64,000 nucleotides of DNA from Bacteroidota bacterium (GTDB taxonomy: Bacteria; Bacteroidota; Bacteroidia; UBA8524). This document shows positions 12,539-48,901 of this stretch, piece by piece. Both the position numbers and the translations under genes were made by a program. The stretch lies in assembly GCA_016124735.1 (NCBI GenBank), contig WGMZ01000031.1, positions 52,147 through 116,146 on the forward strand, in the 5' to 3' direction. The notes under the pieces are model-generated. The model saw nothing but the letters and a program-made list of their open reading frames with translations. It was not told the origin of the DNA and ran no database searches. How positions within the stretch are numbered: position 1 is the first letter of the stretch; every line of letters begins with the position of its first letter.

Positions 12539-13079
12539 GGATTGTCCCGATGTTTGCCAAGGTGTAGGATTCGCTGAAAGCGCGTCAAATTTTCTTTATT
12601 TTTCCCAAAGATTAGGTATGCCGAGTCATCTTTTTCAATTTAGTATCCGTCAACTATTCTGGATTGCTTTGGCATTTGCAGGATGGGGATTTGTCTATGT
12701 TTTTCAGGAATTCGACTTCACCCGGTTTGAGTTTAGAATCGGCCAGTATGCGGAGGGTCATATTCCGGACGGAGAATCCTGGCGCTTCGCCGTGAACAAG
12801 AGCCTTCGTTTCTTTTTCAATGATTTGTTTTCCCTTTTGTTCATTTACGGATTATTCCAAAACAGGAATTATATCCGAATCGGTTTGGTGGTGATGGCCT
12901 TCGGGTTATTTCTTCTCTTACCCGTTTATCTGACTCTGGCCATTCTATACAAGGATTCTATCTTCCATCTATTGACCTTTTTGCACCGCATCACCATGAA
13001 TCCCTGGATGATGCTTTTATTGGTTCCTGCTTTTTATTTTATTCAGATGAAGAAGGATCAGGATGATTCCAGGGAGTAA
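12537..13079 (+). CDS. Exosortase F system-associated membrane protein (putative); the true start is possibly the internal Met near 12618
   Basis: This small polytopic membrane protein lies beside xrtF and fits the known pairing of XrtF with the 'exosortase F system-associated protein'. The N-terminus is uncertain. Confidence 0.4.
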   Translation: MDCPDVCQGVGFAESASNFLYFSQRLGMPSHLFQFSIRQLFWIALAFAGWGFVYVFQEFDFTRFEFRIGQYAEGHIPDGESWRFAVNKSLRFFFNDLFSLLFIYGLFQNRNYIRIGLVVMAFGLFLLLPVYLTLAILYKDSIFHLLTFLHRITMNPWMMLLLVPAFYFIQMKKDQDDSRE

Positions 13080-14583
13080 CCCCAAAACCTTCATGATAAA
13101 TCTTGAGGGTGTCGGGCACACATGGAGTAGGTGTATCGCCGCAATATATACAACTTTCAGGACGATAATAACTGTGAGGAGCGTTCACCCAATCCGGATT
13201 AATCACAGGATATGGAGTGGGGCTGATTAACATGGCAAGTGAAACCTTAAAACTATCTCCGCAGTGTAAGAGATGAAGGTTGGACTTTCCTGAAGTATTC
13301 ATCCATACCATTATGGCCAAGGCCATTCCAAAAACAGGGAGTTGGAAATTTTTCAGGATGCGTTGGGAAAAATCCTGCTGAAACATAAGCATGATTCCCG
13401 CAATTGCCAAACCCAGTCCGAAGCGATAATTCGGCGCCAGAACCACCCATAGTAGCAAAAATATTAAAGACCATACCGACCAGAACGGAACCCTACCTAC
13501 CTTCTCCTTTCTGAGGGTAAAAAGAAGATAGATCCCGGAACCCAGGATTAAAGCATTCATGATGACCTTGTAAGTCTTTAGATGAAACAAAGCCAAAAGG
13601 CGCTCTGTCCAGGAGAAGTCAGCGTTTAGCCAATCTTGGGCCGAATATCCTACGCCATAAATTTCCGCCAGTACTCCCCTACTAAATGCCAGTAGCATTT
13701 CATTTGGAAGGGTGTATGCTGCAGGCCACCAGCTGCTAGGCAATGGGAACAATACGTGTCCACTCAGTACCTGATTTTTCATCATCCATACGATTCCCAT
13801 CAGGACTGGCAACAGCGACCATCGAATAAATGATGATCTGTATTTTAACAAGGGATAGCAGCCGGCAAGGACCAATGAAAAGGCGGTGGCTTTCAGGCCA
13901 ATGATCAGAACCAGGAGCCATGACCAATCCTTCATCCTTAATTCTTTATGGTTTAGCAAGATGAAGCCTGTGAGTAAAATGATTGGTAAGTCGGGCGAAG
14001 GAGCGTTGAGAAATGGAGCACTCAATACCATTGCAAATGAAATTCCTGAAAGGGAGATTCCCTTTCGAAGCCCATCCACGCAAAAGATGAAAAGCAAAAG
14101 CCCATTAAAATTCCATATCCGGTCTGGAGTAATGGAATCCCAATAAAAGAATGAGGACAAGAGATGCCAGGATGAACCCAGTCCTAAACGAATATTCCAT
14201 TGGGCCAATCCTTCTTCAAATCCAAAGTCAGAAAACCATTTAATGCTCTGCAGGTAATAGGACAAATCATCATTAATCCATACCGGCAAGGATGAAATAA
14301 AGAGACAAGCCAAAAGTATCACGGTTTCCTTCCATTGCGCTGTTTTCAAGGAAAAAGCGCCATGCCTTCGATCCCGTATTTCGAGAAGGACAGCGCCAAG
14401 AAGAAAAAGGAGAAAAAAACGTGCGGGAAGGAAAAAGGACCAAAGATGTCCCAGCAACAGCCAGGCAGAGAGTCCGGAAACAAAATTGAGAAACAGCTGA
14501 TCTTCCCGATAGGTTCCTATTAACCGACTTAGCCTTAGGCTTGCCAGAAATAATAGCGTCCATGCAAGGAGGAGAAGCAGCAT
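13039..14583 (-). CDS. Large polytopic membrane protein of unknown function with a Cys/Pro-rich C-terminal tail. It is the last gene of the minus-strand polysaccharide operon.
   Basis: The 514-aa protein has more than 10 predicted TM helices. The C-terminus reads YYRPESCIYCGDTPTPCVPDTLKIYHEGFGVTPWNHPD. No family was recognised. It is co-directional and nearly contiguous with the upstream genes. Confidence 0.5.
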   Translation of the reverse strand: MLLLLLAWTLLFLASLRLSRLIGTYREDQLFLNFVSGLSAWLLLGHLWSFFLPARFFLLFLLGAVLLEIRDRRHGAFSLKTAQWKETVILLACLFISSLPVWINDDLSYYLQSIKWFSDFGFEEGLAQWNIRLGLGSSWHLLSSFFYWDSITPDRIWNFNGLLLFIFCVDGLRKGISLSGISFAMVLSAPFLNAPSPDLPIILLTGFILLNHKELRMKDWSWLLVLIIGLKATAFSLVLAGCYPLLKYRSSFIRWSLLPVLMGIVWMMKNQVLSGHVLFPLPSSWWPAAYTLPNEMLLAFSRGVLAEIYGVGYSAQDWLNADFSWTERLLALFHLKTYKVIMNALILGSGIYLLFTLRKEKVGRVPFWSVWSLIFLLLWVVLAPNYRFGLGLAIAGIMLMFQQDFSQRILKNFQLPVFGMALAIMVWMNTSGKSNLHLLHCGDSFKVSLAMLISPTPYPVINPDWVNAPHSYYRPESCIYCGDTPTPCVPDTLKIYHEGFGVTPWNHPDPSSSE

Positions 14584-14606
14584 GGGTGGAAGATACGAAG
14601 GAAAGT

Positions 14607-15614
14607 TTATTCCGCGGCGGCGTAGATTTTTTCGATGATTTCTACGACTTTCATGCCGTCTTCGCCGCGTGTTGCGATTGGAGCATTGTGTTTGAGAACG
14701 TCGATAACGTTTTGGATAACGAAGGCATGGTTCCCGGCACTTCCTTTGTAGCCGCCATAATCATTGGGTGGCAGGGATTCTTTTATTTCTGGAACATTAT
14801 AATCTTTAATATGAGCAAATTCTATTCTGTCCATATATTGGCCCCCAATTTTAAAGGCACCATTTTCTGCAAGGACTGTCATGCTGCTCTCCATATTCTC
14901 TTCGAAAACTGAAGTTGAAAACTGAATGCTACCAACTCCCCCATTCCGAAATTCGAAATGTACCATTCCACTGTCGGCAAATTCGGTAGAGTCGGTATGA
15001 TTGTGATTGAACAATCTGGTTTGAATATTTTGAATATCCCCAAACACCCAATACATCACATCGATAAAGTGGGAGAATTGGGTAAAAAGCACTCCACCAT
15101 CCAGTTCTTTTGTTCCCCGCCAATTGATTTCTGATTTCGGGCCGACTTGGTAGTAGCGCTTATCGCGGTTCCAGAAACAGCGAATATGTACTTCAAAGAT
15201 TTTTCCCAGTTGCCCGGACTCAAGCACCTCTTTCATCCAGATGGATGGAGGACTGTACCTGTTTTGCTTGACTACAAATACCTGACGGTTCAAGTCTTTT
15301 GCCAATTCTATCAACTCCCCACAGGAGGAGGATGATAGTCCCATGGGTTTTTCAATCAGCACATGCATTCCTGCCCGGACAGCTTTTTTGGCCATTGGGA
15401 GGTGCAATCCGTTGGGAAGTGCGATCACTGCAACATCTGCCTGTCCTCCTGAGGTCAGGAATTCCTCCAAGCTGGTAAAAAAAGGTTTCTTGTTTATCCA
15501 CTTCCCTTTATCGACATCGATGGTTCCTTCCAGCCTTGCTTCCGGATGCACTTCAATCAACGTTGCGTGTCGTTTTCCGATATGGCCATAACCGAGAAGT
15601 AGGAAGCGAATCAT
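14607..15614 (-). CDS. Gfo/Idh/MocA-family NAD(P)-dependent oxidoreductase (WbpB-like nucleotide-sugar dehydrogenase candidate)
   Basis: The N-terminal Rossmann motif is MIRFLLLGYGHIGKRH. The 335-aa length and fold pattern fit Gfo/Idh/MocA, and the gene sits in a sugar-modification context. Confidence 0.75.
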   Translation of the reverse strand: MIRFLLLGYGHIGKRHATLIEVHPEARLEGTIDVDKGKWINKKPFFTSLEEFLTSGGQADVAVIALPNGLHLPMAKKAVRAGMHVLIEKPMGLSSSSCGELIELAKDLNRQVFVVKQNRYSPPSIWMKEVLESGQLGKIFEVHIRCFWNRDKRYYQVGPKSEINWRGTKELDGGVLFTQFSHFIDVMYWVFGDIQNIQTRLFNHNHTDSTEFADSGMVHFEFRNGGVGSIQFSTSVFEENMESSMTVLAENGAFKIGGQYMDRIEFAHIKDYNVPEIKESLPPNDYGGYKGSAGNHAFVIQNVIDVLKHNAPIATRGEDGMKVVEIIEKIYAAAE

Positions 15615-15708
15615 TGGGCGAATTTATAAATCTCGGAGAACTAAACTCCATATAAAAGAAAACCCGTTGAATTGCTCCAACGGGTCTATAATAAAATACC
15701 ACTAATTA

Positions 15709-17055
15709 TCAGGCCGAAGCCGTTTGGTTTTGGGCTTTCTGAACTACCCCAATTCCGTAGTAAATGAACCCTTTATCTTTTAATTCGCTTGAATCATATA
15801 TGTTTCTTCCATCGAAAATGACCTTGTCATTCATAATTTCGGTCATTTGCTCAAAGTTCGGAAAACGGAATTCTGGCCATTCTGTGGCCAAAATTAAAGC
15901 GTCCACACCTTTGAGGGTATCATATTGTTCTGCACAGTATTCGATTTTGTTGCCAATCATATGTTTGGCTTCTTCCATTGCAACTGGGTCAAAGGCCTTT
16001 ACTTTAGCACCTGCACTAAGTAAATGCTCAATAATTACTAAAGATGGGGCTTCGCGCATATCGTCCGTTTTCGGCTTGAAGGAAAGTCCCCAGAATCCGA
16101 AGGTTTTTCCAGTGAGATCAGTACCAAAATGTGAAACCACTTTATTGTACATCACTTCTTTCTGTGCTTCATTCACTTCTTCAACAGCTGTAAGGACACG
16201 CATATTATACCCTTTCTCCGCTGCGGTTCTAATCAAAGCCTTCACATCTTTAGGAAAACAGGAGCCACCATATCCAATTCCCGGATAGATAAATTTTGTT
16301 CCAATCCGCGCGTCGGAGCCAATTCCTTTACGTACTAAATTTACGTCTGCACCAACAATTTCGCATAGATTGGCAATGTCATTCATGAAACTAATCTTTG
16401 TAGCGAGCATCGAATTTGCGGCATATTTTGTCATTTCCGCAGAAGGAATATCCATGAAAATTACCGGGTGCCCGTTCAGGGTAAATGGTTTATATAGTTT
16501 TGCCATTATTTCCTGAGCTTTTTGGGATGAAATCCCCACAACAATGCGATCTGGTTTCAGAAAATCTTCAATTGCCGCGCCTTCTTTCAGGAACTCAGGA
16601 TTTGAAGCAACGTCGTATTCAATATCCACATTGCGTTGTGCCAGAGCTTCTTTGATCGCACTGTTTACTTTTTCAGCCGTTCCTACCGGAACGGTCGATT
16701 TGGTAACCACAACACCATAATTATTCATATTTTCACCAATTTCACGTGCAACTGCCAACACGTACTTCAAATCAGCAGAGCCGTCCTCTCCAGGAGGAGT
16801 TCCCACAGCGATAAAAGCCACATCAGCACCCTTTATTGCATCTCCAAGATTCGTTGAAAACCGGAGACGTTTGGCCTCGTAATTCTTGATTACCATTTCC
16901 TCAAGACCTGGCTCATATATTGGCATGATACCATTTCTAAGTCCTTCTATCTTTTTCTGATCAATATCGACGCAGACTACATCTATTCCAACTTCAGCAA
17001 AACAAGTTCCTGTCACAAGTCCTACATAACCGGTTCCTACTACTACAATTTTCAT
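15709..17055 (-). CDS. ugd: UDP-glucose 6-dehydrogenase
   Basis: The N-terminus is MKIVVVGTGYVGLVTGTCFAEVG and the catalytic-Cys motif is GGSCFPKDVKAL. At 448 aa it fits the UDP-glucose/GDP-mannose dehydrogenase family. Confidence 0.9.
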   Translation of the reverse strand: MKIVVVGTGYVGLVTGTCFAEVGIDVVCVDIDQKKIEGLRNGIMPIYEPGLEEMVIKNYEAKRLRFSTNLGDAIKGADVAFIAVGTPPGEDGSADLKYVLAVAREIGENMNNYGVVVTKSTVPVGTAEKVNSAIKEALAQRNVDIEYDVASNPEFLKEGAAIEDFLKPDRIVVGISSQKAQEIMAKLYKPFTLNGHPVIFMDIPSAEMTKYAANSMLATKISFMNDIANLCEIVGADVNLVRKGIGSDARIGTKFIYPGIGYGGSCFPKDVKALIRTAAEKGYNMRVLTAVEEVNEAQKEVMYNKVVSHFGTDLTGKTFGFWGLSFKPKTDDMREAPSLVIIEHLLSAGAKVKAFDPVAMEEAKHMIGNKIEYCAEQYDTLKGVDALILATEWPEFRFPNFEQMTEIMNDKVIFDGRNIYDSSELKDKGFIYYGIGVVQKAQNQTASA

Positions 17056-17124: not shown

Positions 17125-18273
17125 TCAATTGTTCTGCAATTCCAAAATCTTTTCTACAATTCTGGAAGCAGTTTTACCATCCCAAAGAGGTGGAACTTCT
17201 CCTTTTTTCCAATTTCCTTCGAAGAGTCTTTTCATGGCCGGTGCAATAGCCTTAGGATCTGTACCAAGCAATTCATTTGTTCCCATTTCAATAGTTTCAG
17301 GACGTTCTGTATTGTCGCGCAGGGTCATGCAGGGAATACCCATTACGGTGGTTTCTTCTGTGATTCCTCCTGAATCGGTGATTACAGCCTTACTATTTTC
17401 TACCAGGTAATTAAACTCCAGATAACCCAGTGGTTCTACCATTATCAATCTGTCATGGTGGATGTCTAAACCTTCCAGTATCTGACGCGTCCGGGGATGC
17501 ACCGGAAAAATCAATTTTAAGGATTCTGAATTATCAATGATTGCCTGAATCAAGTCCTTCAGCTTTGATTCTTCATCGACGTTAGCCGGACGATGCAAGG
17601 TCATGACAATATAGTTCCCTTTTTCCAGATTTTGTTCCTTCCAGCATTGCGGTTGGGTAAACCTGGGTCTCTGCTTTAATAGCGTATCGATCATGGTATT
17701 CCCTACCAGATGAATTTGATCTTCTCTGGCGCCAAGTTTCCTCAGATTATTATTTGCCAACTCTGTGGTGGTATAGAAGTGGTCTGTGATGCTGTCTGTA
17801 AGCATGCGGTTAATTTCTTCCGGCATGGTCAAATCATGCGATCTGATTCCCGCCTCCACGTGTGCAACTTCTATGTTTAGCTTTTTCGCTGCAATGGAAC
17901 AGGCCATGGTAGAAGTCACATCTCCAACCACTAAAGTGAGATTACAGGGCTTTTCCAACAATAATGCTTCATAGGCTACCATAATTTTTGCCGTTTGCTC
18001 AGCCTGGGTCCCCCCGCCAGCACCCAGGTTGACATCCGGCTCTGGAATTCCCAACTGCTCAAAAAATTGTTCTGACATATTCCGATCGTAATGCTGTCCG
18101 GTATGAACCAATCGGTATTCGAGTTTATTTCCCGTTTCCTGTGCGTCTTTGATTGCATCAATAATTGGAGCAATCTTCATGAAATTAGGGCGTGCGCCGG
18201 CGATAAGGTCTATAAGGTAATTCATACTTTGGTTTGAAAATAAAAAAGTAGAGATATACGAGAAATCAAACAA
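17125..18273 (-). CDS. wecB: UDP-N-acetylglucosamine 2-epimerase (non-hydrolysing)
   Basis: The segment IAGARPNFMKIAPI ... VHTGQHYDRNMS ... is characteristic of WecB/MnaA and the length is 382 aa. Confidence 0.9.
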   Translation of the reverse strand: MFDFSYISTFLFSNQSMNYLIDLIAGARPNFMKIAPIIDAIKDAQETGNKLEYRLVHTGQHYDRNMSEQFFEQLGIPEPDVNLGAGGGTQAEQTAKIMVAYEALLLEKPCNLTLVVGDVTSTMACSIAAKKLNIEVAHVEAGIRSHDLTMPEEINRMLTDSITDHFYTTTELANNNLRKLGAREDQIHLVGNTMIDTLLKQRPRFTQPQCWKEQNLEKGNYIVMTLHRPANVDEESKLKDLIQAIIDNSESLKLIFPVHPRTRQILEGLDIHHDRLIMVEPLGYLEFNYLVENSKAVITDSGGITEETTVMGIPCMTLRDNTERPETIEMGTNELLGTDPKAIAPAMKRLFEGNWKKGEVPPLWDGKTASRIVEKILELQNN

Positions 18274-19531
18274 TCATCCCTGCAGCCACCGTTTCATTTG
18301 TGGCTTCATCTACTAAAATTAAACTGCCGGTATTTCGGTTTTTTCGATAAGCATCTTTTAATACTGCCTTTGTGGTGCGAAGTTTTGCCCGGAAGATGTC
18401 GTTCATTCCGATATTTTTATCTGACTCGTCCTTGCTCAGGGAATTAATATTCAACTTATATATCACCTCCTTCACCATGGTTCGCATTTCATTACTTGTA
18501 TGGCGAAGGATATATTTTGAGGATGGATTCAAACCTCGGTTATTCAACCAGCACATCATCAATTCCAGGTCTTGGGTCGAATCTGGCTGATTATTAGGTT
18601 TTGCGAGCATATCTCCTCTGCTTACATCGATATCATCGTCGAGAGTCATAGTAACAGACATTGGAGGAAAAGCCTCGGACACTTTCTCTTCTCCAACCAT
18701 GATTTCTTTGATTTTCGATTTAAACCCACTCGGCAGAACAATGATCTCTTCGCCTGGGCGAAAAACCCCTCCGTCGATGCGACCGGCATAACCCCGGAAA
18801 TCGTGATATTCCTGCCTATGGGGACGAATTACCGTCTGAATCGGGAACCTAGCATCCAGGTGATTATAATCACTTCCAATATGAATATTTTCCAGCGTGT
18901 GCAGTAAGGTTGATCCTTCGTACCAGCTGGTTTTTGTGGAACGATTCACCACATTATCCCCTTCCAGGGCTGAAATAGGAATAAACCGAATATCCTGCAC
19001 ATCCAATTTGGAGGCAAAGGCTTCGTATGTTTTTACAATCTCGTTAAAACGTTCCTGGTCGTAATCAACAAGGTCCATCTTATTTACACACACAATAATG
19101 TGTGGTATTTGTAAAAGGGAGGCAATATAACTGTGGCGATAAGTTTGTTCAATCACCCCTTTTCTCGCGTCAATTAAAATCAATGCAAGGTTTGCTGTAG
19201 AGGCTCCAGTCACCATATTCCGGGTATACTGAATATGCCCGGGAGTGTCTGCAATAATGAATTTTCTGCGCGGTGTGGCAAAGTAACGGTAGGCCACATC
19301 GATGGTGATGCCCTGTTCTCTTTCGTCCTTGAGTCCATCGGTAAGTAAGGACAAATCAATATGTGCTAATCCTTTTTTCTGGCTGCTACCTTTCACTGCT
19401 TCCAGTTGATCCTCAAAGATGGATTTTGAATCGTACAATAAGCGACCGATTAAGGTACTTTTTCCATCATCTACGCTTCCAGCAGTGGTGAAGCGAAGCA
19501 GCTCCATATCCAAATAACCCGACTGTGTCAT
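18266..19531 (-). CDS. cysN: Sulfate adenylyltransferase subunit 1 (GTPase)
   Basis: The G1 motif GSVDDGKSTLIGRLL is followed by DTPGH, NKMD and an EF-Tu-like domain architecture. It is adjacent to cysD. Confidence 0.9.
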   Translation of the reverse strand: MTQSGYLDMELLRFTTAGSVDDGKSTLIGRLLYDSKSIFEDQLEAVKGSSQKKGLAHIDLSLLTDGLKDEREQGITIDVAYRYFATPRRKFIIADTPGHIQYTRNMVTGASTANLALILIDARKGVIEQTYRHSYIASLLQIPHIIVCVNKMDLVDYDQERFNEIVKTYEAFASKLDVQDIRFIPISALEGDNVVNRSTKTSWYEGSTLLHTLENIHIGSDYNHLDARFPIQTVIRPHRQEYHDFRGYAGRIDGGVFRPGEEIIVLPSGFKSKIKEIMVGEEKVSEAFPPMSVTMTLDDDIDVSRGDMLAKPNNQPDSTQDLELMMCWLNNRGLNPSSKYILRHTSNEMRTMVKEVIYKLNINSLSKDESDKNIGMNDIFRAKLRTTKAVLKDAYRKNRNTGSLILVDEATNETVAAGMIV

Positions 19532-23600: not shown

Positions 23601-23826
23601 TTGTAATGTGCTCTAATTTTAAATTCTGCTTCATTCCCATTGAATTTGAGGGTGTTCAAAGGTACTTAAGTTGTTCGGTAATTTCCTGTTTCTGAATGAT
23701 TTACTAAATTATCCCTTTCCATTGCAAACACGAATTCGGACATAGGTCAAATTGACTGATTGCCAAATGAGCATGCATTGCCAACATATTCTAATCAGAC
23801 GCAGAAGAATGCCTGTCCCAGAATTC

Positions 23827-38297: not shown

Positions 38298-38385
38298 GCG
38301 CTATATTAAATTTATTCAGAAATAAATAAGGACGTACCATTAGAGGCCCCGCCTTGTTTCAGGAATTTGGGTAGTAGTGCTTCTG

Positions 38386-39943: not shown

Positions 39944-39944
39944 C

Positions 39945-41108: not shown

Positions 41109-42345
41109 AATTACGGAGACTATTGGTATTTAAAAACAAATTCAATCCTTTCATCAGGGAGACAAATGCATAAACTATAATTAGGGTATAAAGCACGCCA
41201 ATTTCAGCATAGGCTTTCACCAAAGGGATTATGACTATAAAATTTAAGATCGCCGAATAGAGTAATATTCTGCTCATTTTTCTTTCCTTGTGCTCAATGA
41301 CAAAAAAATTCGAAAAAATGGGCCCAAATGGCAGCAACAAGATGACAAATGAAGTGACGTGCAGGAGGTTCACAATATTCTCATCCTTGTTTCCCTGCAA
41401 TAAAATAGCAATGGGTCCAGCCAAATAATAAATCACGAAAGCTCCTACGACAAATACCACGGAAAGACCCAAAGTAAATTGCCTTCTCATTTTGATATAT
41501 TTATCACGCTGGCTGATAAACCATTGCGCCATATTGGGAAATGTGGCTTGTACAAGTGGTTGAGCCAGCGAAGAACCAGCTTTGATCATCTTATCGGCAA
41601 CACCAAAAATACCTACTGCTCCGTCTCCCGCATAATACCCCAGAATCAGAACATTTGTTGACCCATAAGTGCTTACAAGAACCCTGGAAATAAATACATG
41701 CCATCCTAACTTCAATTCTTTCATAATGGCCCGGTAAGGTGGTATCTGAATACGAAAATTCTCCAGTTTAAGTGCTATTCCGAATCCAATTAGCCCGGAT
41801 ATTAACCAACCACTTGACAGTAAAAGAATGGTAGCCCCTATTTGTGTCGATTCGCGAATAAATAGAAAAATTAGACCTATAGAAATGAATTTGGAAATAA
41901 CATTGATAATGGTCAGAATTCGCATTTTTTTTATTCCCTGAAAATACCAAACAGGAAAGAAAGCGTTGCCAACAACCATAAGGAATCCATAAAAATAATT
42001 CAATCTATCCTGAGGAGTATCCAACCATAGTATTATGCCTATAAATGGAATAACTGTGGCAAATAATAAAACTATCTTAGATATCTGTATGCGAATAAAT
42101 GCGGTATTCCTCTCCTCCGAACTCGTGCATTGCCCTATTGTGCGTGTACCGGTCAGGTTAAAACCATAATCAACAATGATGTTAAAATAGGACATGATGG
42201 CCTGGATGAAAATGACCTGACCATATCCCTCCTTCCCAATTACCCGAAACAGAAAAGGGATTACAAGAAGCGGTGTAAGGTAATTCGCTGCTTGCATAAA
42301 ACCCAGTGCTACCGTATTTCCGATAATTTGTTTCCGCTCGGTCAA
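41095..42345 (-). CDS. wzx: Oligosaccharide-unit flippase Wzx (MOP superfamily)
   Basis: The protein is 416 aa with 12 TM helices and follows the polysaccharide-biosynthesis-protein pattern. Confidence 0.7.
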   Translation of the reverse strand: MTERKQIIGNTVALGFMQAANYLTPLLVIPFLFRVIGKEGYGQVIFIQAIMSYFNIIVDYGFNLTGTRTIGQCTSSEERNTAFIRIQISKIVLLFATVIPFIGIILWLDTPQDRLNYFYGFLMVVGNAFFPVWYFQGIKKMRILTIINVISKFISIGLIFLFIRESTQIGATILLLSSGWLISGLIGFGIALKLENFRIQIPPYRAIMKELKLGWHVFISRVLVSTYGSTNVLILGYYAGDGAVGIFGVADKMIKAGSSLAQPLVQATFPNMAQWFISQRDKYIKMRRQFTLGLSVVFVVGAFVIYYLAGPIAILLQGNKDENIVNLLHVTSFVILLLPFGPIFSNFFVIEHKERKMSRILLYSAILNFIVIIPLVKAYAEIGVLYTLIIVYAFVSLMKGLNLFLNTNSLRNYGNV

Positions 42346-43367
42346 GAGTTGATTTTATAAAATTTATTATACCAATCGATAAATGAAGCAATTCCTTCCT
42401 GCACAGAAGTGTTCGGTTCATAATTTGTAATCTTTTTGAGCTTGCCCACATCCGCCCAGGTTTGGTGTACATCACCTGGTTGCATTTCTCTGAAAATAAG
42501 TTGTGCCTTTTTCCCGATTGTTTCTTCCATCACACGGATAAATTGCATTAAATCTACAGGGGCTCCTCTGCCAATATTCAAAATACTATATGGTTCAGTA
42601 TAACCTTCTGCTAAAACCAATAAACGAATTCCGTTCACAATATCTTCTACAAATGTAAAATCACGTGCCATGTCTCCATTATTAAAAACCTGGATAGGCT
42701 TGTCTTCCGTAATAGCTTTCGCAAACAACATGGGAGCCATGTCGGGTCGGCCCCACGGTCCGTAAACGGTAAAAAAACGCAGTCCGATAGTCTGAATTCC
42801 ATACAGATGACTATACGTGTGGGCCATCAACTCATTTGCTTTCTTTGTGGCGGCATAAAGACTCACGGGATTAGATACTTCCTGTGATTCCGTGAAAGGG
42901 ACGGTACTAGAATCTCCATAAACACTTGAACTGGAGGCATAAATTAAGGTCGGTACTTTTCGATGACGACATCCTTCTAAAATATTCATGAATGCATCGA
43001 TATTCGCAGAAATGTACGCATGCGGGTTCTCCAACGAATATCTCACGCCCGGTTGAGCAGCCAAATGAACAACATGAGTGAATGTAAACTGACCAAACAA
43101 ATTCTCTACCGATTTGCGATCGGAAAGATCCATACGAATGAAAGTATAGAATTGATTTATTTTTGATTTGACTGGTTCATTCCACTTTAAATTTTCGGTT
43201 TCTATACCCGAATCTTCCAATCTGGCTAACTTCAGTTTGATGTCATAATAATTATTGATGGAGTCCACTCCAACAATGTGATATCCATCTTTCCACAGTG
43301 CCTTTACCAGCTGGTGTCCTATAAATCCAGCAGTTCCAGTTACAAGAATGGTTTTATTTCTATCCAA
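42342..43367 (-). CDS. UDP-GlcNAcA/UDP-GlcA 4-epimerase (TviC/WbpP/CapI-like SDR)
   Basis: The N-terminus is TILVTGTAGFIGHQL followed by DSINNYYDIKLKLARL, which is characteristic of the CapI/TviC subfamily. It overlaps the dehydrogenase partner downstream. Confidence 0.8.
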   Translation of the reverse strand: MDRNKTILVTGTAGFIGHQLVKALWKDGYHIVGVDSINNYYDIKLKLARLEDSGIETENLKWNEPVKSKINQFYTFIRMDLSDRKSVENLFGQFTFTHVVHLAAQPGVRYSLENPHAYISANIDAFMNILEGCRHRKVPTLIYASSSSVYGDSSTVPFTESQEVSNPVSLYAATKKANELMAHTYSHLYGIQTIGLRFFTVYGPWGRPDMAPMLFAKAITEDKPIQVFNNGDMARDFTFVEDIVNGIRLLVLAEGYTEPYSILNIGRGAPVDLMQFIRVMEETIGKKAQLIFREMQPGDVHQTWADVGKLKKITNYEPNTSVQEGIASFIDWYNKFYKINS

Positions 43368-43410
43368 AATATACTCTTTGCTGCTAATAAATAAATGAGT
43401 ATTTCACACC

Positions 43411-44703
43411 TTAAAGTCTCGAATCTACAAGAGATTTGTCTAACACGCCTTTGATATCAAAGACAACAGAATTAGTAGTGGTAAGCACTGAAAAATCTAA
43501 TTTCAAGAATTCATCGTGTGCAACGGCCAGAACCACGGCTTCATAACTCATTCCAGGGCTCTCTTTGGTAATTTCCAAACCGTACTCATGTTTGACTTCC
43601 TCCTCGTTTGCCCAGGGATCATAAATATCTACCATGCACCCGAAGCCCTTTAATTCGGAAACGATATCGACTACACGGGTATTTCGAATATCCGGACAAT
43701 TTTCCTTAAAGGTGAAGCCCATGACCAGCACATTGCTGCCCTTTATGGTATGACCTTTTTGAATCATCAATTTGACGACTTTGTTTGCCACGAACATGCC
43801 CATATTGTCATTCACTCTTCTTCCGGAAAGAATTACCTGGGGATGATATCCCAAGGTTTCTGCTTTGTGCGCCAGATAATAGGGATCCACGCCAATACAA
43901 TGTCCACCAACCAATCCTGGCTTGTATTTTAAAAAGTTCCATTTTGTGCCGGCGGCGGCCAAAACATCGTTGGTATCAATACCAATTCGATCGAAAATCA
44001 AAGCCAGTTCATTTACAAAGGAAATGTTGACGTCTCGTTGTGCATTTTCAATTGCCTTTGAAGCTTCAGCTACTTTAATGTTCGGTGCTTTATGTGTTCC
44101 TGCTGCAATAATTGATGCATACAATGCATCGACAAAATCTGCAACATCCGGTGTGGACCCAGAAGTTACCTTCATGATTTTAGTCAAAGTATTCACTTTA
44201 TCCCCCGGATTGATACGCTCAGGAGAATATCCGCAATAAAAGTCTTGATTAAAGACTAATCCTGAATTCGATTCCAGCACAGGAACGCAATCTTCTTCCG
44301 TGCAGCCAGGATAGGTTGTTGACTCATAAATAACGATATCGCCTTTTTTAAGAATTTGTCCAATACTGGCACTGGCAGAAATAAGTGGTCTGAGATCCGG
44401 AGATTTGCTGGAATCAACCGGAGTAGGTACGGTGACAATGTAAACATTGCATACTTCTATTTCATTCCGGTCAGATGTAATTTTTAATCCTGCATGAGGA
44501 TCACCATTTCCTAAAGCAATTTTTAGTTCGCTTTCATCCGCTTCCAGAGTTGAATCTTTGCCCGATGCCAATTCGCGGACTCTATGGCTGTTTATGTCAT
44601 ATCCAACTGTTTTAAATTTTTTGGAAAATTCAAGGGCTAATGGAAGGCCGACATAGCCTAATCCAATTACAGCGATTTTAGCTGATTTCAATTCTTGCAC
44701 CAT
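43411..44703 (-). CDS. UDP-N-acetyl-D-glucosamine (or mannosamine) 6-dehydrogenase (TviB/WbpA/WecC-like)
   Basis: The N-terminus is [18 protein letters not shown]. The catalytic Cys region [11 protein letters not shown] is present and the 430-aa length is typical of the TviB/WbpA class. Confidence 0.85.
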
Positions 44704-45221
44704 AACATTAAATTCGATTCTCTTAAAACGGTGTTTTTTTCTGCCTCAAATTCTTCTCGATTGAACAGAACATACCTTATTTTTCTTTTTATTTGAACTT
44801 CTACTTTTTCCAGCAACCTCATCAGATAGGCTTTATCGATATCTCCTACAAAGATTAAATCAATAATAGGACTATCCAGCCCCTTTCCTAATTCTCCAAC
44901 AAGATATACTTCTTCAAGCTGTCCTAATCGACTAACTACCCGATCTACAATTTGATCCAGGCCTGTATATTTGAGCAGGATATTATGAATGTCTGCAAAA
45001 AGCGGATGCTGCCTATTGGCTCCAAACAATTTGCGGTTTCCCTGATGAACGGACATCAAAAGTCCGGCTTTCTCAAATCTGTTTAGTTCAAGTCTTATTG
45101 CATTTGTGCTTTCACCAAATTCAGATTCAAGGCTCCTCAAATAGGCAGAGGTATCTGCATTAAGAAAAAATTTCAGCAATAGTTTCACCCTGGTTTTGGA
45201 TGAAATTAAAATATCAATCAC
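44688..45221 (-). CDS. Putative winged-helix transcriptional regulator
   Basis: The N-terminal wHTH-like segment is [11 protein letters not shown] ... [18 protein letters not shown]. The length is 177 aa. It lies between wzc and the sugar-biosynthesis genes. Confidence 0.4.
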
Positions 45222-45447
45222 GAAACGATTTTATTTTACTAAAAGGATTCGCATTAGGTACGCAGGCTACACAGCTTCGCCACGTCAGTCCCATACCTGA
45301 ATGCTTATTGAGTAAAAAAACTACTCAAATATGCTCGAATTTTCAATAAATGCAAAACCGCGAGATTACTTTTAATATTTTCTTAATGTTCCAAAAGTCC
45401 TTTGAACGCTCGCTGCTTGAAGTCTCTCCTAATCTGTTATGTTTGAA

Positions 45448-47847
45448 CTAGTTTTTCCTGAGACGCAGTTTGGATTTTTTCTTCTGATGGTCCTCTTCAT
45501 AATAGCCATATCCATAACCGTAGCCATAACCGTAGCCATAGCCGTATCCGTAGCCATAGCCGTAACCATATGTTGAACTTACTCCTACATCATTCATGAT
45601 GACGGAAATCGACTTGTTACTGTGATTTTCCTCCAAATAATTTAATGAAGTCAACATTGGCTTTCTTGTGTATGATTGCCGAATTACATAAATAACAATA
45701 TCCGCAAACTTCATCAAATCATTCGCATCTGCCACCAATCCCATCGGAGGCGTATCCATTACAATATAGTCGAATCTTTCTTTTAGCTCAATGAGCATTT
45801 CTGCGAACTTCTCGCTCATCAATAATTCAGCAGGATTGGGTGGTGTCGGACCAGATGGGATTACGAATAAATTCGGGTTCATGGTCGGATGGATTACATC
45901 TTTCAGTTTCTCCGCACCAATAAGGTAATTCACTACACCCTTTTCGTTGGTAAGGTTGAAGTCATCAAAAATTGTGGGGTTCCGTAAGTCCAAACCAAGG
46001 ATGACTGTTTTCTTTTCCCCCAACGCAAGAATGGAAGCTAAGTTCATAGAACAATATGTTTTTCCTTCACCAGAAATGCTGGAGGTCACCAAAATAACTT
46101 TCTTCTCCTTACTGATAGATAAATACTGAAGATTTGTTCTTATCGCCCGGAAAGATTCGGATATACTCGTCTTAGGGTGTTCAAGTACAATTAAGTTCGT
46201 GCTCTTTTCACTGTGACCAACCAATCCCAATATATTTGCCTTGGAAATGCTTTGAACTTCTGCCAATTCATGTACTCTGTTGTCGAAATAACTGAATATC
46301 GAAATGCCACCTATCGGAATTAAAATACCAAGTAAAAATCCGATTGCATAATTCAGTGACTTTTTTGGAGAAATTACACCCAAAGCTACCGCTTCATCAA
46401 TAATCTTATTAGGTGAAACAATCGATGCCTTATTAATTTCACTTTCAGCCTTTTTCTCAAGAAGTAAAGTAAATAATGCGTCGTTCAGTAAATATTTTCT
46501 CTCAATAGTTAAATAGGTTCTTTCAACCTGAGGTAGTTTCGCAATTTCTTCATCGTATGAATTAATCTGGCGATCTAATTCCTGAATTCTGATGGATGAC
46601 CCTTGTTTTTGAGAATTCAGATTCTCCACCAATGTTTTTTTAAGCAATACTATCTGAGCATCAATACCATTCAGCAAGGTTCCTTCCTTCACAATCCCTG
46701 ATAACATATCCTGCCTCTGCGAATTCAAATGAATTAATTCATTTACCAAACCAATTAACACCGGATCTTGAACGCCCATCGAAGAAGGGGCCACAATATC
46801 GTCTATGGATCTACGGCCATGTACATAGTCTTCTAAAAAGTTCAGGTATTGGATTTGCAGGTCCTCTGATGACTTTTTGGCAATCAATACATCCAGTTTC
46901 TCAAAAATTCTTCCTCCTTCTTCCCCGATAGTTGTCAATCGGTGTGAAGAGTGAAAATCTTCTCTCAGATTTTCAACCTGATCCAGACTGTCCGACACTA
47001 TCGCCAATTGGGAATTTATAAAGTCAATGGTCTTTTCGGACTTTTCCTTGGCTTCCTTCAAACCAAATTGAATATAGGTTCGTGCAAGAGTATTTAAATA
47101 ATCTTTGATTTTTAACTCATTTCTACCTTTCAACTCCATTCTTATAGCCGACGATCCTTCCGCCTCTGGGTCAATCACCAGGTCTTTGTTGTATTTTTCG
47201 ATGAGAGATTCCTCGGTGTTAAACTTGATAGACATTCGTTCATTTCCCTTCACTGGCCCCTTCCTTATTAACCTGAAGTAAAACCCGTTCCAGCCAATAT
47301 TTTTATCAAATTCATATTCGTCCCGAAGTGTGGTATCCCACAAATCTTCAATCTCGTCCCTGTTTAATAGCTTCCAATTTCCTTCATTATCAAACTCTAT
47401 TTCGAGATTGACTTTTTCCATATACTCCGGAATACTGTCATATATCAATTTAATAGGCACATCCGGACCGTAGGTTTCATTGCTAAGCAGGCGACCAACA
47501 ATAAAATAGCTAATCCCAAAATCCAATTGATCAAGCGTGAGCCTGGTCATCTTGCGAGATTTAATTTTTACTACCTCATTCTCAAAAGTCAAGCGTGGGT
47601 TATAATAGCCCAAGGCGGACATCAATTGTTCAGGACCAAAAGATTCCTTTTCACTGCCATCGTCAATTAATAGTTTTAACTCTGTCTTATAGGTTGGTAA
47701 GGTATATCTGTTAACGAGATACGCAACAGACAAACCCAACAAAATACCGAATACGATTATTGGCCAAAAAGATAAAATTCTAAAAAGTAATGCCTTTAAA
47801 TCAATCGATTCACTTGCATTAGATGATTGGCGTTCCGAAGAAGTCAT
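45448..47847 (-). CDS. wzc: Polysaccharide co-polymerase / tyrosine autokinase (Wzc, BY-kinase) with a C-terminal (YG)11 tyrosine tail
   Basis: An N-terminal Wzz-like domain has two TM segments and long coiled coils. The C-terminal kinase has Walker A VTSSISGEGKTY and Walker B-like VIMDTPP. The tail is STYGYGYGYGYGYGYGYGYGYGYYEE. Confidence 0.85.
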   Translation of the reverse strand: MTSSERQSSNASESIDLKALLFRILSFWPIIVFGILLGLSVAYLVNRYTLPTYKTELKLLIDDGSEKESFGPEQLMSALGYYNPRLTFENEVVKIKSRKMTRLTLDQLDFGISYFIVGRLLSNETYGPDVPIKLIYDSIPEYMEKVNLEIEFDNEGNWKLLNRDEIEDLWDTTLRDEYEFDKNIGWNGFYFRLIRKGPVKGNERMSIKFNTEESLIEKYNKDLVIDPEAEGSSAIRMELKGRNELKIKDYLNTLARTYIQFGLKEAKEKSEKTIDFINSQLAIVSDSLDQVENLREDFHSSHRLTTIGEEGGRIFEKLDVLIAKKSSEDLQIQYLNFLEDYVHGRRSIDDIVAPSSMGVQDPVLIGLVNELIHLNSQRQDMLSGIVKEGTLLNGIDAQIVLLKKTLVENLNSQKQGSSIRIQELDRQINSYDEEIAKLPQVERTYLTIERKYLLNDALFTLLLEKKAESEINKASIVSPNKIIDEAVALGVISPKKSLNYAIGFLLGILIPIGGISIFSYFDNRVHELAEVQSISKANILGLVGHSEKSTNLIVLEHPKTSISESFRAIRTNLQYLSISKEKKVILVTSSISGEGKTYCSMNLASILALGEKKTVILGLDLRNPTIFDDFNLTNEKGVVNYLIGAEKLKDVIHPTMNPNLFVIPSGPTPPNPAELLMSEKFAEMLIELKERFDYIVMDTPPMGLVADANDLMKFADIVIYVIRQSYTRKPMLTSLNYLEENHSNKSISVIMNDVGVSSTYGYGYGYGYGYGYGYGYGYGYGYYEEDHQKKKSKLRLRKN
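45501..45570. repeat. Near-perfect tandem DNA repeat (period about 6 to 12 bp) encoding the (Tyr-Gly)n tail of Wzc
   Basis: The plus-strand sequence ATAGCCATATCCATAACCGTAGCCATAACCGTAGCCATAGCCGTATCCGTAGCCATAGCCGTAACCATA is the reverse complement of TAY/GGN codon pairs. Confidence 0.8.
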
Positions 47848-47856
47848 AAGTTAGGA

Positions 47857-48732
47857 TTAGGTCTTACTGATATAGTATACAATGATAATCGTCGATGAAA
47901 GTACCGATAAAACAGATACCAATGATTGAAAACCGGTAGTCCCTGTGCCAAGTGCTCTGATTGCTAATGGTTGCACATATATTATATCATTCGGTTGTAT
48001 GTAATAATAAGGGGATGATATTATAGATTCATCCAGTAAATTGACCTTGTGAATTCGAGTCCCATCAGGATACTGCCTCATAATTGTTACCTCGCTTCTT
48101 TTCGCCAATTCTGTTAAATCTCCTGCATTTGCAATCGCTTCAAACAAAGTCATTCGATTCTGTAATACCATGAACTTACCGGGTCGCTTTACTTCACCGA
48201 GAACTGAATATCTCAATCCTCCCAGTCGCACCGTTGTGTACACATTACTCAGGTATTGATTAAACGTGGATTGAACAATTGAATTTGCTTCAAATACATT
48301 TAACCCTTCCAATTTCATTTTTCCAATAATCGGTAAATAAACAAAGCCTGAATCATCTATAGTAAAACCCGTCAAGTAGAAATAGTCCCCACCCTGTTGC
48401 AAAGCACTAGACATATTCATATTCATTCGCTGTTCAAAGATGTTTTGCAAAATCGGATTATCAGAAGCCAGCTTGACATCTATGCCCACAATATCACCCT
48501 TTTGAAGTCGATAATTATTGCGTTGCACATCATACAAGGTATCAGCCTGCTGATTTATATCTTGAAGATAGATGATTTTCTTATTCGGCACACAGCCAAT
48601 TATTCCCAACATCAGGAACAATGGAAGGAAAAAGTTTGTAGCTCTTTGACTCAAAATCGAAACAATTTTGGGCGAAGATAGGACTAAGAGTTCGGTTTTC
48701 AGAATTCCAAATTCAGTTTTGTATGCATACAA
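47857..48732 (-). CDS. wza: Polysaccharide export outer-membrane protein Wza (Poly_export plus SLBB domains). The true start is likely the internal Met giving the lipoprotein signal LMLGIIGC.
   Basis: A lipobox-like LGIIGC is present. The Poly_export-like segment is YRLQKGDIVGIDV and the SLBB-like segment is YSVLGEVKRPGKF. The C-terminus is hydrophobic. Confidence 0.75.
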   Translation of the reverse strand: MYAYKTEFGILKTELLVLSSPKIVSILSQRATNFFLPLFLMLGIIGCVPNKKIIYLQDINQQADTLYDVQRNNYRLQKGDIVGIDVKLASDNPILQNIFEQRMNMNMSSALQQGGDYFYLTGFTIDDSGFVYLPIIGKMKLEGLNVFEANSIVQSTFNQYLSNVYTTVRLGGLRYSVLGEVKRPGKFMVLQNRMTLFEAIANAGDLTELAKRSEVTIMRQYPDGTRIHKVNLLDESIISSPYYYIQPNDIIYVQPLAIRALGTGTTGFQSLVSVLSVLSSTIIIVYYISKT

Positions 48733-48751
48733 ATCACCTACCCTTCCTTTA

Positions 48752-48901
48752 CTCTATATGACTGAGAAAATACAATATCAAGGTGATTGTTCCGAATATA
48801 AAAGTTATAATCAAACAGCCAATTGCCAAGTTGAATAAGGAAGCTTTGCTTAATGAGAACTTTTTATTGAACCTTTCTATTTTGTAAAATTCATTGTCCA
48901 T
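48752..48901 (-). CDS. Small ORF (about 49 aa) encoding a single-TM peptide immediately upstream of wza; possible operon leader or small membrane protein
   Basis: The minus-strand translation is MDNEFYKIERFNKKFSLSKASLFNLAIGCLIITFIFGTITLILYFLSHIE. It is below the ORF-track length cutoff and sits 20 bp upstream of the wza ORF. Confidence 0.3.

Follow-up and report, generated by a model that had tools for sequence, protein, structure and literature searches.

A 64,000-nucleotide stretch from the metagenome-assembled genome of an uncultured, marine-type Bacteroidota bacterium (GTDB lineage Bacteria; Bacteroidota; Bacteroidia; UBA8524; GenBank assembly GCA_016124735.1, contig WGMZ01000031.1, positions 52,147 to 116,146), hereafter the window, contains a long minus-strand gene cluster that is likely a Wzx/Wzy-dependent capsule or exopolysaccharide (EPS) locus combining three kinds of decoration chemistry with its own supply of sulfate donor. 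The polymer predicted from these genes would very probably be rich in uronic acids and carry primary amides, an amino-alcohol amide and O-sulfate. A sequence-only reading of the same DNA had proposed a surface polysaccharide that is both sulfated and amidated. This proposal, a prediction from genes, is supported by the 3'-phosphoadenosine 5'-phosphosulfate (PAPS)-binding motifs of the sulfotransferase, by the coupled position of its gene, and by precedents for the cys cassette encoded nearby.

The listing of open reading frames (ORFs) and the junction statistics reveal that 30 ORFs of 177 aa or more follow one another on the minus strand between positions 13039 and 48732, with a 50-aa ORF in front of them (Table 1). 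The run of about 30 same-strand genes described earlier, from a leader ORF and wza to a Cys-tailed membrane protein, is therefore borne out; the latter belongs to the LIC_10190 family, and its C-terminal part is indeed Cys-rich. Protein families were assigned with Pfam and NCBIfam profile searches of the window proteins, which confirmed every family named beforehand. In the direction of transcription, the cluster encodes Wza, Wzc, a 177-aa protein, a TviB-like dehydrogenase, an SDR epimerase, Wzx, a pyridoxal phosphate (PLP) enzyme, a HAD phosphatase and an ATP-grasp ligase. These are followed by a protein with about 10 transmembrane (TM) segments, the glycosyltransferase GT4c, the amidotransferase AsnB2, GT4b, AsnB1, the sulfotransferase, a 351-aa beta-propeller, a heparinase-like enzyme and GT4a. 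Next come a second SDR, a WecA/MraY-family initiator, a PglD-like protein and, beyond a 226-bp gap, cysQ, an anion transporter gene, cysC, cysD and cysN; wecB, ugd, a hairpin, and the genes of a GFO/IDH/MocA oxidoreductase and of the LIC_10190-family membrane protein complete the series. The heparinase-like enzyme, the 351-aa protein, the PglD-like acetyltransferase, the second SDR, the GFO/IDH/MocA oxidoreductase and the 177-aa protein had not been named in the sequence-only reading. Several components expected of a Wzx/Wzy-dependent locus occur together, namely Wzx, a PCP-2a tyrosine autokinase with a Tyr cluster, an OPX protein, an initiator and glycosyltransferases.

The sulfotransferase matches Sulfotransfer_3 with 120.9 bits, compared with a gathering cut-off of 27, and its sequence aligns with human TPST1/2 as well as with the sulfotransferase domains of 4gox and 4gbm (CurM). 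Its segment GVGRSGTS (5'-PSB) aligns with the 5'-phosphosulfate loop GVPRSGTT of TPST, and its segment RDPRDVVLS (3'-PB) with the TPST 3'-phosphate motif RDGRASVHS. In addition, a P-E-T-H segment lines up with P-E-L-H of 4gox, presumably the stretch with the catalytic Glu and His of such domains. Across 120 aligned homologues, G12, G14, R15, S16, G17, T18, E36, K112, R137, D138, P139, R140 and S145 are invariant, and the motifs GxGRSGT, PETH, KDP and RDPR..S are kept. The assignment would have fallen had a proper alignment lacked the PAPS-binding motifs; it holds because both are present and invariant. The protein has neither a signal peptide nor a TM segment and must therefore act in the cytoplasm, where PAPS is found. 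Its gene, translationally coupled to its neighbors, overlaps AsnB1 and abuts the propeller gene between GT4b and GT4a, and about 25 other polysaccharide loci, distributed over several phyla, keep it at this place inside the glycosyltransferase block. On these grounds, the enzyme is predicted to transfer sulfate from PAPS to a glycan acceptor.

The Cys proteins score above their NCBIfam cut-offs, in agreement with the earlier recognition of a PAPS supply and recycling unit (cysDNC, cysQ and an anion transporter) inside an EPS locus. Two chemically proven sulfated capsules provide precedents. The biosynthetic gene cluster (BGC) of Cobetia marina KMM 1449 contains cysN/C, cysD, cysQ, a sulfate permease and a sulfotransferase gene (PMC11766843), and in that of Vibrio sp. 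KMM 8419 a second cysNDC copy accompanies sulfotransferase genes, a combination that its authors term a "hallmark" of the synthesis of sulfated polysaccharides (PMC11641403). The window shows the same features, with cysD, cysN and cysC (plus cysQ and the transporter) inside the BGC and the sulfotransferase among glycosyltransferases. The rarity of such loci, to which the sequence-only reading had appealed, was overstated, given that loci joining PAPS genes and sulfotransferases are already published (PMC11641403). The inference is well founded, but the association of both in a capsule locus is an already documented principle.

A sulfotransferase, a propeller and a lyase-fold enzyme

The 351-aa protein encoded next to the sulfotransferase is modeled as a seven-bladed beta-propeller. 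It has no Pfam, NCBIfam or PDB sequence match, lacks a signal peptide, and counts just 81 homologues among 5.8 billion clusters; a structure search with the model returned generic propeller matches only. A scan of GTDB species genomes with an alignment of 16 propeller sequences yielded 54 loci, against which all 30 window proteins were compared in a tblastn matrix. A sulfotransferase homologue lies directly beside the propeller in 27 of the 29 loci whose propeller homologue is at least 35% identical, the two exceptions being one rearranged order and one locus cut by a contig end. The heparinase-like gene follows in 20 of these 29 loci, and is then usually followed by a WcaI-like GT4, WecB, or both. 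No sulfotransferase was found in the 26 loci with distant propeller homologues (34% identity or less), ten of which have WecB within 3 kb and two a heparinase-like gene.

Carriers of the module include the Flavobacteriaceae Christiangramia sediminicola, Muriicola marianensis and Gaetbulibacter aestuarii, the Cytophagales Roseivirga and Cyclobacteriaceae, three Neomarinimicrobiota metagenome-assembled genomes (MAGs), about eight Planctomycetota MAGs, one Chromatiaceae genome and one Clostridiales MAG. The module order was independently confirmed in Christiangramia and Roseivirga from gene calls with Pfam labels. Five loci from Planctomycetota and unclassified MAGs share a longer block with the window. 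Loci L017 and L018 (Planctomycetota) display its full seven-gene order (AsnB, GT4, AsnB, sulfotransferase, propeller, heparinase-like, GT4), L023 and L026 the same order minus the first AsnB, and L013 the same genes rearranged. The encoded proteins are only about 30-46% identical to those of the window, which implies that the seven-gene block is old and horizontally shared. The locus of C. sediminicola SM2212 (L001; JAVJIU010000001.1, 353701-374600) encodes three sulfotransferases, that of the module included; two are of the Sulfotransfer_3/1 type and one is of the Sulfotransfer_2 type. CysN, CysQ, an AMP-binding enzyme, Wzx, Wzy_C, Wza, Wzc and Wzi are encoded there as well. Altogether, this distribution indicates that the sulfotransferase, propeller and lyase-fold genes recur as a sulfation module that heterotrophic marine phyla share by horizontal transfer.

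The third member of the module resembles heparinase III. Its N166, Y216 and H329 align with Asn, Tyr and His residues of the Pedobacter enzyme (4mmh/4mmi), presumably the catalytic Asn240, Tyr294 and His424 of HepC, and are invariant in 116 homologues. Its AlphaFold2 (AF2) model (pLDDT 92.8) finds as top Foldseek matches the PL12 heparinase III structures 5jmd (9e-21), 4mmh and 4fnv, followed by PL33, PL17 and PL15 lyases. The window protein shares with PL12 heparinase III (Pedobacter HepC 4mmh and Bacteroides BT4657 5jmd) an (alpha/alpha) toroid and a beta-sandwich, but is about 130 residues shorter and about 16% identical, lacks a signal peptide, and is encoded within biosynthetic loci, beside a GT4 and a WecA-type initiator. 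A degradative lyase was considered and rejected because the protein has no signal peptide and its gene belongs to biosynthetic loci. From its sequence and context we conclude that it would be a cytoplasmic enzyme of biosynthesis, removing the C5 proton from a uronate of the unit under construction, the sequence being compatible with epimerization as well as with elimination. The family is very large, with more than 6,400 matches of about 520 aa annotated as "alginate lyase family" or COG5360. A literature search for heparinase II/III-like genes in biosynthetic loci retrieved only the archaeal epimerase Agl32, which has a different fold.

We put forward, as a doubtful proposition, that the sulfotransferase, the propeller and the heparinase-III-like enzyme are a prokaryotic counterpart of glycosaminoglycan (GAG) maturation. 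In this scheme, the lyase-fold enzyme would be a C5-epimerase of uronates in the lipid-linked repeat unit, converting for example GlcA to IdoA or ManNAcA to L-GulNAcA, and the dedicated sulfotransferase-propeller pair would then sulfate the epimerized product. In animals, the second isoform of dermatan-sulfate epimerase bears an O-sulfotransferase domain. The proposition draws on the invariance of the residues that would abstract the C5 proton, on the predicted cytoplasmic place and biosynthetic setting of the enzyme, and on the linkage of the gene to WecB, uronate genes and GT4 in many loci. It is weakened by the occurrence of the heparinase-like gene without any sulfotransferase in Spirosoma and by the absence of dermatan-sulfate epimerase from the 50 best structural matches. 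Should it be true, marine Bacteroidota, Planctomycetota and Marinisomatota, phyla usually viewed as degraders of sulfated glycans, would be widespread makers of GAG-like sulfated polymers.

The Spirosoma locus (Spirosoma sp. SC4-14, L058; CP147518.1, 1334791-1356383) encodes WecB, an oxidoreductase, the heparinase-like protein, a GT4, an SDR and a Glycos_transf_4 protein, with neither the propeller nor the sulfotransferase in the block. Its oxidoreductase is a 727-aa fused zinc-ADH/GFO bidomain protein. The block made of the heparinase-like, GT4, SDR and Glycos_transf_4 genes is widespread.

Amidation, precursor sugars and assembly

Two amidation systems are predicted. First, both AsnB proteins, recognized earlier as amidotransferases and borne out by their Pfam domains, contain full GATase and Asn_synthase domains and start with MCG, in which Met is followed by the Cys that serves as Ntn nucleophile. 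By family only, they can be likened to WbpS of Pseudomonas aeruginosa O6 and WbtH of Francisella tularensis, AsnB-family proteins that are encoded with a TviB/TviC-type pair and give GalNAcA-amide; the window differs in having two AsnB copies.

Second, the sequence-only reading had grouped an ATP-grasp enzyme, a HAD phosphatase and an aminotransferase. All three genes encode what was recognized as ATP-grasp, HAD and PLP enzymes, but the last is more likely a Ser/Thr-phosphate decarboxylase. Over residues 9-380, its identity to PDB 6oux, a "threonine phosphate decarboxylase-like enzyme", amounts to about 50%; with the CobD and HisC models of NCBIfam it scores about 156-158 bits, below their cut-offs. 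The molecule name of 6oux is also the annotation of SMUL_1544, a gene governing norcobamide synthesis in Sulfurospirillum. Relying on this identical and unusual name, we take 6oux to be SMUL_1544, which is presumably an L-serine-O-phosphate decarboxylase yielding ethanolamine phosphate. The window enzyme probably makes an amino-alcohol phosphate as well, from a substrate that we infer. A role as sugar aminotransferase was rejected, as the protein is not of the DegT type and its best match is a decarboxylase. The HAD protein reaches 34 bits with the capsule biosynthesis phosphatase model TIGR01689 and 36 bits with a HAD-IIIA model, both below cut-off. A metagenome scan with the ATP-grasp protein retrieved 13 loci; in all six that have enough upstream sequence, the genes follow in the order PLP enzyme, HAD, ATP-grasp, with GT4, Wzx and Ugd genes around them.

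A comparable system is known from Campylobacter jejuni HS:2. There, Cj1436 produces ethanolamine phosphate and Cj1437 serinol phosphate, the C-terminal domain of Cj1438 catalyzes the ATP-dependent ligation of either amine to the C6 carboxylate of incorporated glucuronate, and the HAD enzyme Cj1435 afterwards strips the phosphate (PMC11800397). The window has the same three enzyme classes, here side by side and next to Wzx, with Ugd in the locus, whereas the ligase of C. jejuni is part of a fusion protein with a glycosyltransferase, and export there goes through an ABC transporter; moreover, the PLP enzyme of the window is nearest to 6oux, a decarboxylase of the SMUL_1544 type. By analogy, the decarboxylase, HAD and ATP-grasp trio may constitute a conserved amino-alcohol uronamide module working like the C. 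jejuni system.

Regarding precursors, Ugd and WecB were named correctly, as their profile scores confirm; Ugd also reaches 556 bits with the TuaD model, below its cut-off of 700. The claim of enzymes for three different acidic sugars is an overcount, as the cluster encodes only two nucleotide-sugar dehydrogenases and WecB by itself yields neutral UDP-ManNAc. In the pair described as TviB-like and TviC-like, the former label is sustained, with a score just under the model cut-off, and the latter is only generic. The TviB-like dehydrogenase is predicted to produce UDP-GlcNAcA or a related HexNAc uronate, and the SDR encoded next to it is possibly a UDP-GlcNAcA 4-epimerase.

The assembly machinery had been described as complete. 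Wza, Wzc, Wzx, the WecA-like initiator and three GT4s are confirmed, and the C-terminus of Wzc carries a (GY)12 tyrosine tail. The Wzy-like candidate stands apart in having zero Pfam or NCBIfam family matches even at E values up to 1; Wzy proteins are highly divergent.

Taking the enzyme families as found, and the substrates and the order of steps as our inference, biosynthesis could proceed as follows. UDP-GlcA (by Ugd), a UDP-HexNAc uronate (by the TviB-like enzyme, with or without the SDR epimerase) and UDP-ManNAc (by WecB) would be made in the cytoplasm. The WecA-family enzyme would prime undecaprenyl phosphate, and the three GT4s would build a repeat unit of about four sugars. With the unit still at the cytoplasmic face, the two AsnB-type enzymes would turn uronate carboxylates into primary amides, and the decarboxylase, ATP-grasp and HAD trio would install an amino-alcohol phosphate, most likely ethanolamine phosphate, on a uronate carboxylate and then dephosphorylate it. 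The heparinase-III-like enzyme would act at uronate C5, as epimerase or eliminase, and the sulfotransferase with its propeller partner would transfer sulfate from PAPS. For this purpose, the SLC13 transporter would import sulfate, CysDN and CysC would convert it to PAPS, and CysQ would clear inhibitory PAP. Finally, Wzx would flip the unit, the 10-TM putative Wzy would polymerize it under the control of Wzc, and Wza would export the product.

Table 1. Features of the polysaccharide cluster, in gene order (positions in the window)
Feature	Position	Strand	Evidence
50-aa ORF, candidate leader	48749..48901	-	one hydrophobic segment; no Pfam match
Wza-type OPX protein	47857..48732	-	Poly_export 1.2e-12, SLBB_2, SLBB; hydrophobic N-terminus ending in Cys, lipoprotein-like
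Wzc-type chain-length regulator / tyrosine autokinase	45448..47847	-	GNVR, AAA_31; TIGR01007 155 bits (cut-off 108)
177-aa protein, candidate regulator	44688..45221	-	HTH-like reading of N-terminal third
TviB-like UDP-N-acetylhexosamine 6-dehydrogenase	43411..44703	-	three UDPG_MGDP_dh domains; NF011729 TviB 560 bits (cut-off 592)
SDR nucleotide-sugar epimerase	42342..43367	-	Epimerase 7.6e-53; GalE 146 and TviC 138 bits, both below cut-off
Wzx flippase	41095..42345	-	Polysacc_synt 1.3e-36; about 7 or more TM segments
PLP enzyme (class I/II), probable Ser/Thr-O-phosphate decarboxylase	39945..41108	-	PDB 6oux, 5.5e-110
HAD-superfamily phosphatase	39410..39943	-	weak HAD-type Pfam matches, most below gathering cut-off
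ATP-grasp ligase, candidate uronate amidoligase	38386..39429	-	RimK 3e-7, Dala_Dala_lig_C 2.7e-6
Candidate Wzy polymerase, about 10 TM segments	37116..38297	-	hydrophobicity count; assigned by position
GT4 (c)	35945..37081	-	Glyco_trans_1_4 9e-32, Glycos_transf_1 1e-30
AsnB-type glutamine amidotransferase 2	33987..35888	-	Asn_synthase 8e-78, GATase_7; TIGR03108 EPS amidotransferase 499 bits, below cut-off
GT4 (b)	32944..34035	-	Glycos_transf_1 1.5e-30
AsnB-type glutamine amidotransferase 1	31103..32944	-	Asn_synthase 3.7e-52, GATase_6/7
PAPS-dependent sulfotransferase, 309 aa from ATG used by NCBI	30190..31119	-	Sulfotransfer_3 (PF13469) 1.2e-34
351-aa protein (ORF15), 7-bladed beta-propeller	29135..30190	-	AF2 model pLDDT 95; adjoins sulfotransferase
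Cytoplasmic heparinase-III-like (PL12-fold) enzyme	27591..29138	-	Hepar_II_III_C 2e-44, Hepar_II_III_N
GT4 (a), WcaI-like	26393..27577	-	Glycos_transf_1 2e-14; after heparinase-like gene in many loci
SDR epimerase/reductase, 309 aa	25467..26396	-	Epimerase 8e-24; in conserved block heparinase-like, GT4, SDR, Glycos_transf_4
WecA/MraY-family initiating HexNAc-1-P transferase	24514..25470	-	Glycos_transf_4 3.9e-19; at least 7 TM segments
PglD/NeuD-like sugar N-acetyltransferase	23827..24483	-	PglD_N 6e-14, Hexapep; TIGR03570 137 bits (cut-off 160.8)
Intergenic gap, 226 bp	23601..23826	-	Bacteroidetes-type -7 box TAccTTTG at 23657-23664
CysQ 3'(2'),5'-bisphosphate nucleotidase (PAP removal)	22800..23600	-	TIGR01331 280 bits (cut-off 229)
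SLC13/DASS-type anion (probably sulfate) transporter	21050..22813	-	CitMHS 5.5e-46, two TrkA_C, Na_sulph_symp 2.4e-12
CysC APS kinase	20451..21053	-	APS_kinase 9.8e-66; TIGR00455 244 bits, above cut-off
CysD sulfate adenylyltransferase small subunit	19553..20458	-	NF009214 448 bits (cut-off 413)
CysN sulfate adenylyltransferase GTPase subunit	18266..19531	-	TIGR02034 549 bits (cut-off 336)
WecB UDP-GlcNAc 2-epimerase	17125..18273	-	Epimerase_2 1.8e-101; TIGR00236 328 bits (cut-off 210)
Ugd UDP-glucose 6-dehydrogenase	15709..17055	-	three UDPG_MGDP_dh domains; NDP-sugar dehydrogenase model 479 bits, above cut-off
Terminator-like hairpin, 12-bp stem, T-rich tail	15660..15687	-	in 94-bp gap after ugd
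GFO/IDH/MocA-family sugar oxidoreductase	14607..15614	-	three GFO_IDH_MocA domains (Pfam)
LIC_10190-family polytopic membrane protein, Cys-rich C-terminal part	13039..14583	-	NF047510 170 bits (cut-off 100)

Transcription units, alternatives and neighboring genes

The cluster had been described as a single 36-kb super-operon with only overlaps or gaps below 100 bp at its junctions. This description of spacing applies to 28 junctions (15 overlaps and 13 gaps of 0-94 bp) and fails at two gaps of 226 bp, one before cysQ and the other between wzc and the 177-aa ORF (45222-45447). The first gap contains the box TAccTTTG, 57-64 nt upstream of the cysQ start codon and the sole intergenic minus-strand copy in the cluster, which conforms to TAnnTTTG, presumably the Bacteroidetes -7 consensus. 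The motif also precedes guaB, a gene for cytochrome c assembly and a WD40 gene; it is not enriched across the window (43 found, about 60 expected), and its intergenic placement is weak evidence. Sigma-70-type promoter counts are at chance, which is what one expects of Bacteroidota, and were disregarded. Counts of terminator-like hairpins are also at chance, and only the 12-bp intergenic hairpin after ugd, the strongest of the region, was retained. The hairpin alone has a centroid energy of -16.7 kcal/mol, and the folded 69-nt segment has a minimum free energy of -17.2 (z -3.43), with 1 of 200 shuffles as stable. Together, the two gaps, the cysQ box and the hairpin argue for several transcription units, which the genes probably form. 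A single 36-kb transcript, unproven, is rather unlikely despite the common strand and the frequent overlaps. The functional coherence of the genes is independent of a single transcript.

The G+C content is 0.38 from wza to GT4c, compared with 0.41-0.45 in the rest of the cluster, which suggests a mosaic or horizontally acquired origin of the half containing the export genes and the amide module. The low-G+C part spans about 34000-48700, and the flanks fall in the same 0.41-0.45 range. The region could accordingly be read as a mosaic of adjacent loci that give rise to two or more glycans or are in part inactive, the blocks being the export genes, the decorated repeat-unit block, the PAPS/WecB/Ugd block and the GFO/LIC_10190 pair. 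The G+C step, the two 226-bp gaps and the hairpin fit such a view, as do the heparinase-like, GT4, SDR and Glycos_transf_4 block standing alone in Spirosoma and the presence of a second Wzx-like flippase on the opposite strand (9950-11269). Nevertheless, all blocks require the single Wza, Wzc, initiator and minus-strand Wzx, the amide-forming enzymes of the first blocks require the Ugd of the last, and with a coding density of 98% the cluster has no frameshifts or truncated ORFs. We regard more than one pathway as unlikely and retain a single decorated polymer.

The cys cassette might also be an ordinary sulfur-assimilation or general PAPS pathway that merely lies beside the polysaccharide locus, in which case sulfation would be independent of its location. 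Given the gap and the promoter-type box that precede cysQ, the cassette can be transcribed alone, most related sulfotransferase-propeller loci are without cys genes within 10 kb, and assimilation of the E. coli type also runs on CysDNC and CysQ. On the other side, Pfam and NCBIfam detect no cysH, cysI/J or sir in the 64-kb window, sugar genes of the same strand flank the cassette on both sides with wecB overlapping cysN by 8 bp, similar sets of transporter, cysC, cysD, cysN and cysQ occur in the proven sulfated-capsule BGCs and beside BT_0416, and Christiangramia has cysN and cysQ directly before its sulfotransferases. Taken together, mere juxtaposition appears quite improbable, and a dedicated donor supply is preferred. 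It is very improbable that the sulfotransferase acts on a lipid, a small metabolite or a protein instead of the repeat unit, as BT_0416 does on cholesterol: its closest solved sequence relatives are polyketide synthase domains (4gox, 4gbm CurM) and protein-tyrosine sulfotransferases rather than carbohydrate sulfotransferases, and the Bacteroides steroid sulfotransferase adjoins a PAPS cluster, but here the gene is embedded between AsnB1 and the propeller gene within a glycosyltransferase block, its position by the propeller, heparinase-like, GT4 and WecB genes is kept in the polysaccharide loci of several phyla mentioned above, and lipid or polyketide genes are absent from the cluster by Pfam.

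Some observations weigh against a capsule locus decorated and supplied as proposed. Of the other genomes whose loci were examined, just two have PAPS genes within 10 kb of the module, namely Christiangramia (cysN, cysQ) and one Hyphomicrobiales MAG (cysD only); therefore, the module works elsewhere without a local cassette. The cassette of the window, preceded by its own promoter-like box and 226-bp gap, could serve general PAPS needs or sulfur assimilation. The family scores of the ATP-grasp and HAD proteins are weak, and their likeness to the C. jejuni proteins is one of enzyme class. Finally, the TviC-like label of the first SDR is generic, and the putative Wzy is identified by topology and position.

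Other genes of the cluster and of its surroundings deserve mention. The 177-aa protein, a candidate locus-specific regulator, is encoded directly after the second 226-bp gap; no Pfam or NCBIfam family matches it above threshold, the sole match being a weak one to PaaX (E 0.016). The gene of the LIC_10190-family protein, whose tail (CGD...CIYCGD...C) looks extracytoplasmic, is paired with that of the GFO oxidoreductase behind the terminator-like hairpin. The left flank holds a DUF2490 gene, small ORFs and the plus-strand Wzx-like flippase. This second Wzx/MurJ-like flippase (Polysacc_synt_3 5e-26) lies within a region (7463-11913) in which it is flanked by 813-aa and 195-aa proteins, both without family match, and a two-component system (5595-7432) is found immediately upstream. 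The region may be part of another glycan system or a regulator of the present cluster. The right flank comprises a degenerate, G+C-rich tandem repeat, a plus-strand gene of the 23S-rRNA-IVP family and guaB. The repeat (48998-49153, about 150 bp; periods 7, 14, 21 and 35) has a unit of approximately GGAGCAAGGGGCAG on the plus strand, leaving the gene strand pyrimidine-rich, and separates the 23S-rRNA-IVP-like gene from the start of the cluster. The former (49245-49619, plus strand) is a lone gene for a 124-aa protein of the 23S rRNA-intervening-sequence-protein family, a four-helix bundle, between guaB and the polysaccharide locus. A 372-aa WD40-repeat beta-propeller (56057-57175, minus strand), whose gene in the right flank has a fatty-acid desaturase gene and genes for cytochrome c maturation nearby, is unrelated to the propeller of the cluster. 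A protein sorted by the type IX secretion system is encoded in the flank, consistent with Bacteroidota. No Rfam families or tRNAs were found in the 64-kb window.

Significance and relation to known systems

Sulfated polysaccharides are of industrial and medical value and form a large, slowly degraded pool of marine carbon. Few bacteria are known to produce them, and marine Bacteroidota are mostly regarded as consumers. Our literature search for Bacteroidota or Planctomycetota producers of sulfated polysaccharide found nothing, and one MAG survey reported no sulfotransferase in its Bacteroidetes bins (PMC9723792). Our searches likewise found no description of a Bacteroidota host, of Wzx/Wzy assembly with two amidation systems, or of a cross-phylum module of sulfotransferase, propeller and lyase-fold enzyme. 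The existence of cultured carriers (C. sediminicola SM2212, M. marianensis and G. aestuarii) makes the prediction directly testable, and C. sediminicola SM2212 lends itself well to experiments on the sulfated capsules of bacteria. For the engineering of sulfated glycans, the locus offers a candidate bacterial carbohydrate sulfotransferase with built-in PAPS supply and recycling and, in the beta-propeller and the lyase-fold protein, a pair of uncharacterised partner enzymes. Two kinds of amidation combined with sulfation would exchange weak carboxylate charges for strong sulfate charges.

The order cysQ, transporter, cysC, cysD, cysN found in the window is presumably also that of the PAPS cluster of Bacteroides thetaiotaomicron. 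In this member of the same phylum, BT_0411-0415 constitute a PAPS cluster beside the proven sulfotransferase BT_0416, such that transporter and PAPS genes directly adjoin the sulfotransferase gene as a likeness of gene content, but the acceptor is cholesterol and not a glycan, and polysaccharide assembly machinery is absent (PMC9417993). The xss locus of Synechocystis, responsible for synechan, shares with the window EPS machinery of the Wzx/Wzy type and sulfotransferases leading to a sulfated EPS. It is cyanobacterial, with XssQ/R/S regulators and two named sulfotransferases, and the part of the published description on which this comparison draws does not mention amidotransferase, ATP-grasp or heparinase-like genes (PMC13125312). 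The closest parallels are the Cobetia and Vibrio clusters, which have in common with the window PAPS genes and one or more sulfotransferases among the glycosyltransferases of a polysaccharide BGC (PMC11766843; PMC11641403). Both belong to Gammaproteobacteria that export neutral Rha/Man/Glc backbones through an ABC transporter (Kps) and whose sulfation was shown chemically. In contrast, the system of the window, known from its genes alone, belongs to Bacteroidota, relies on Wzx, a putative Wzy, Wza and Wzc, and would combine a uronic-acid-rich polymer with two amidation systems and a heparinase-like/propeller module.

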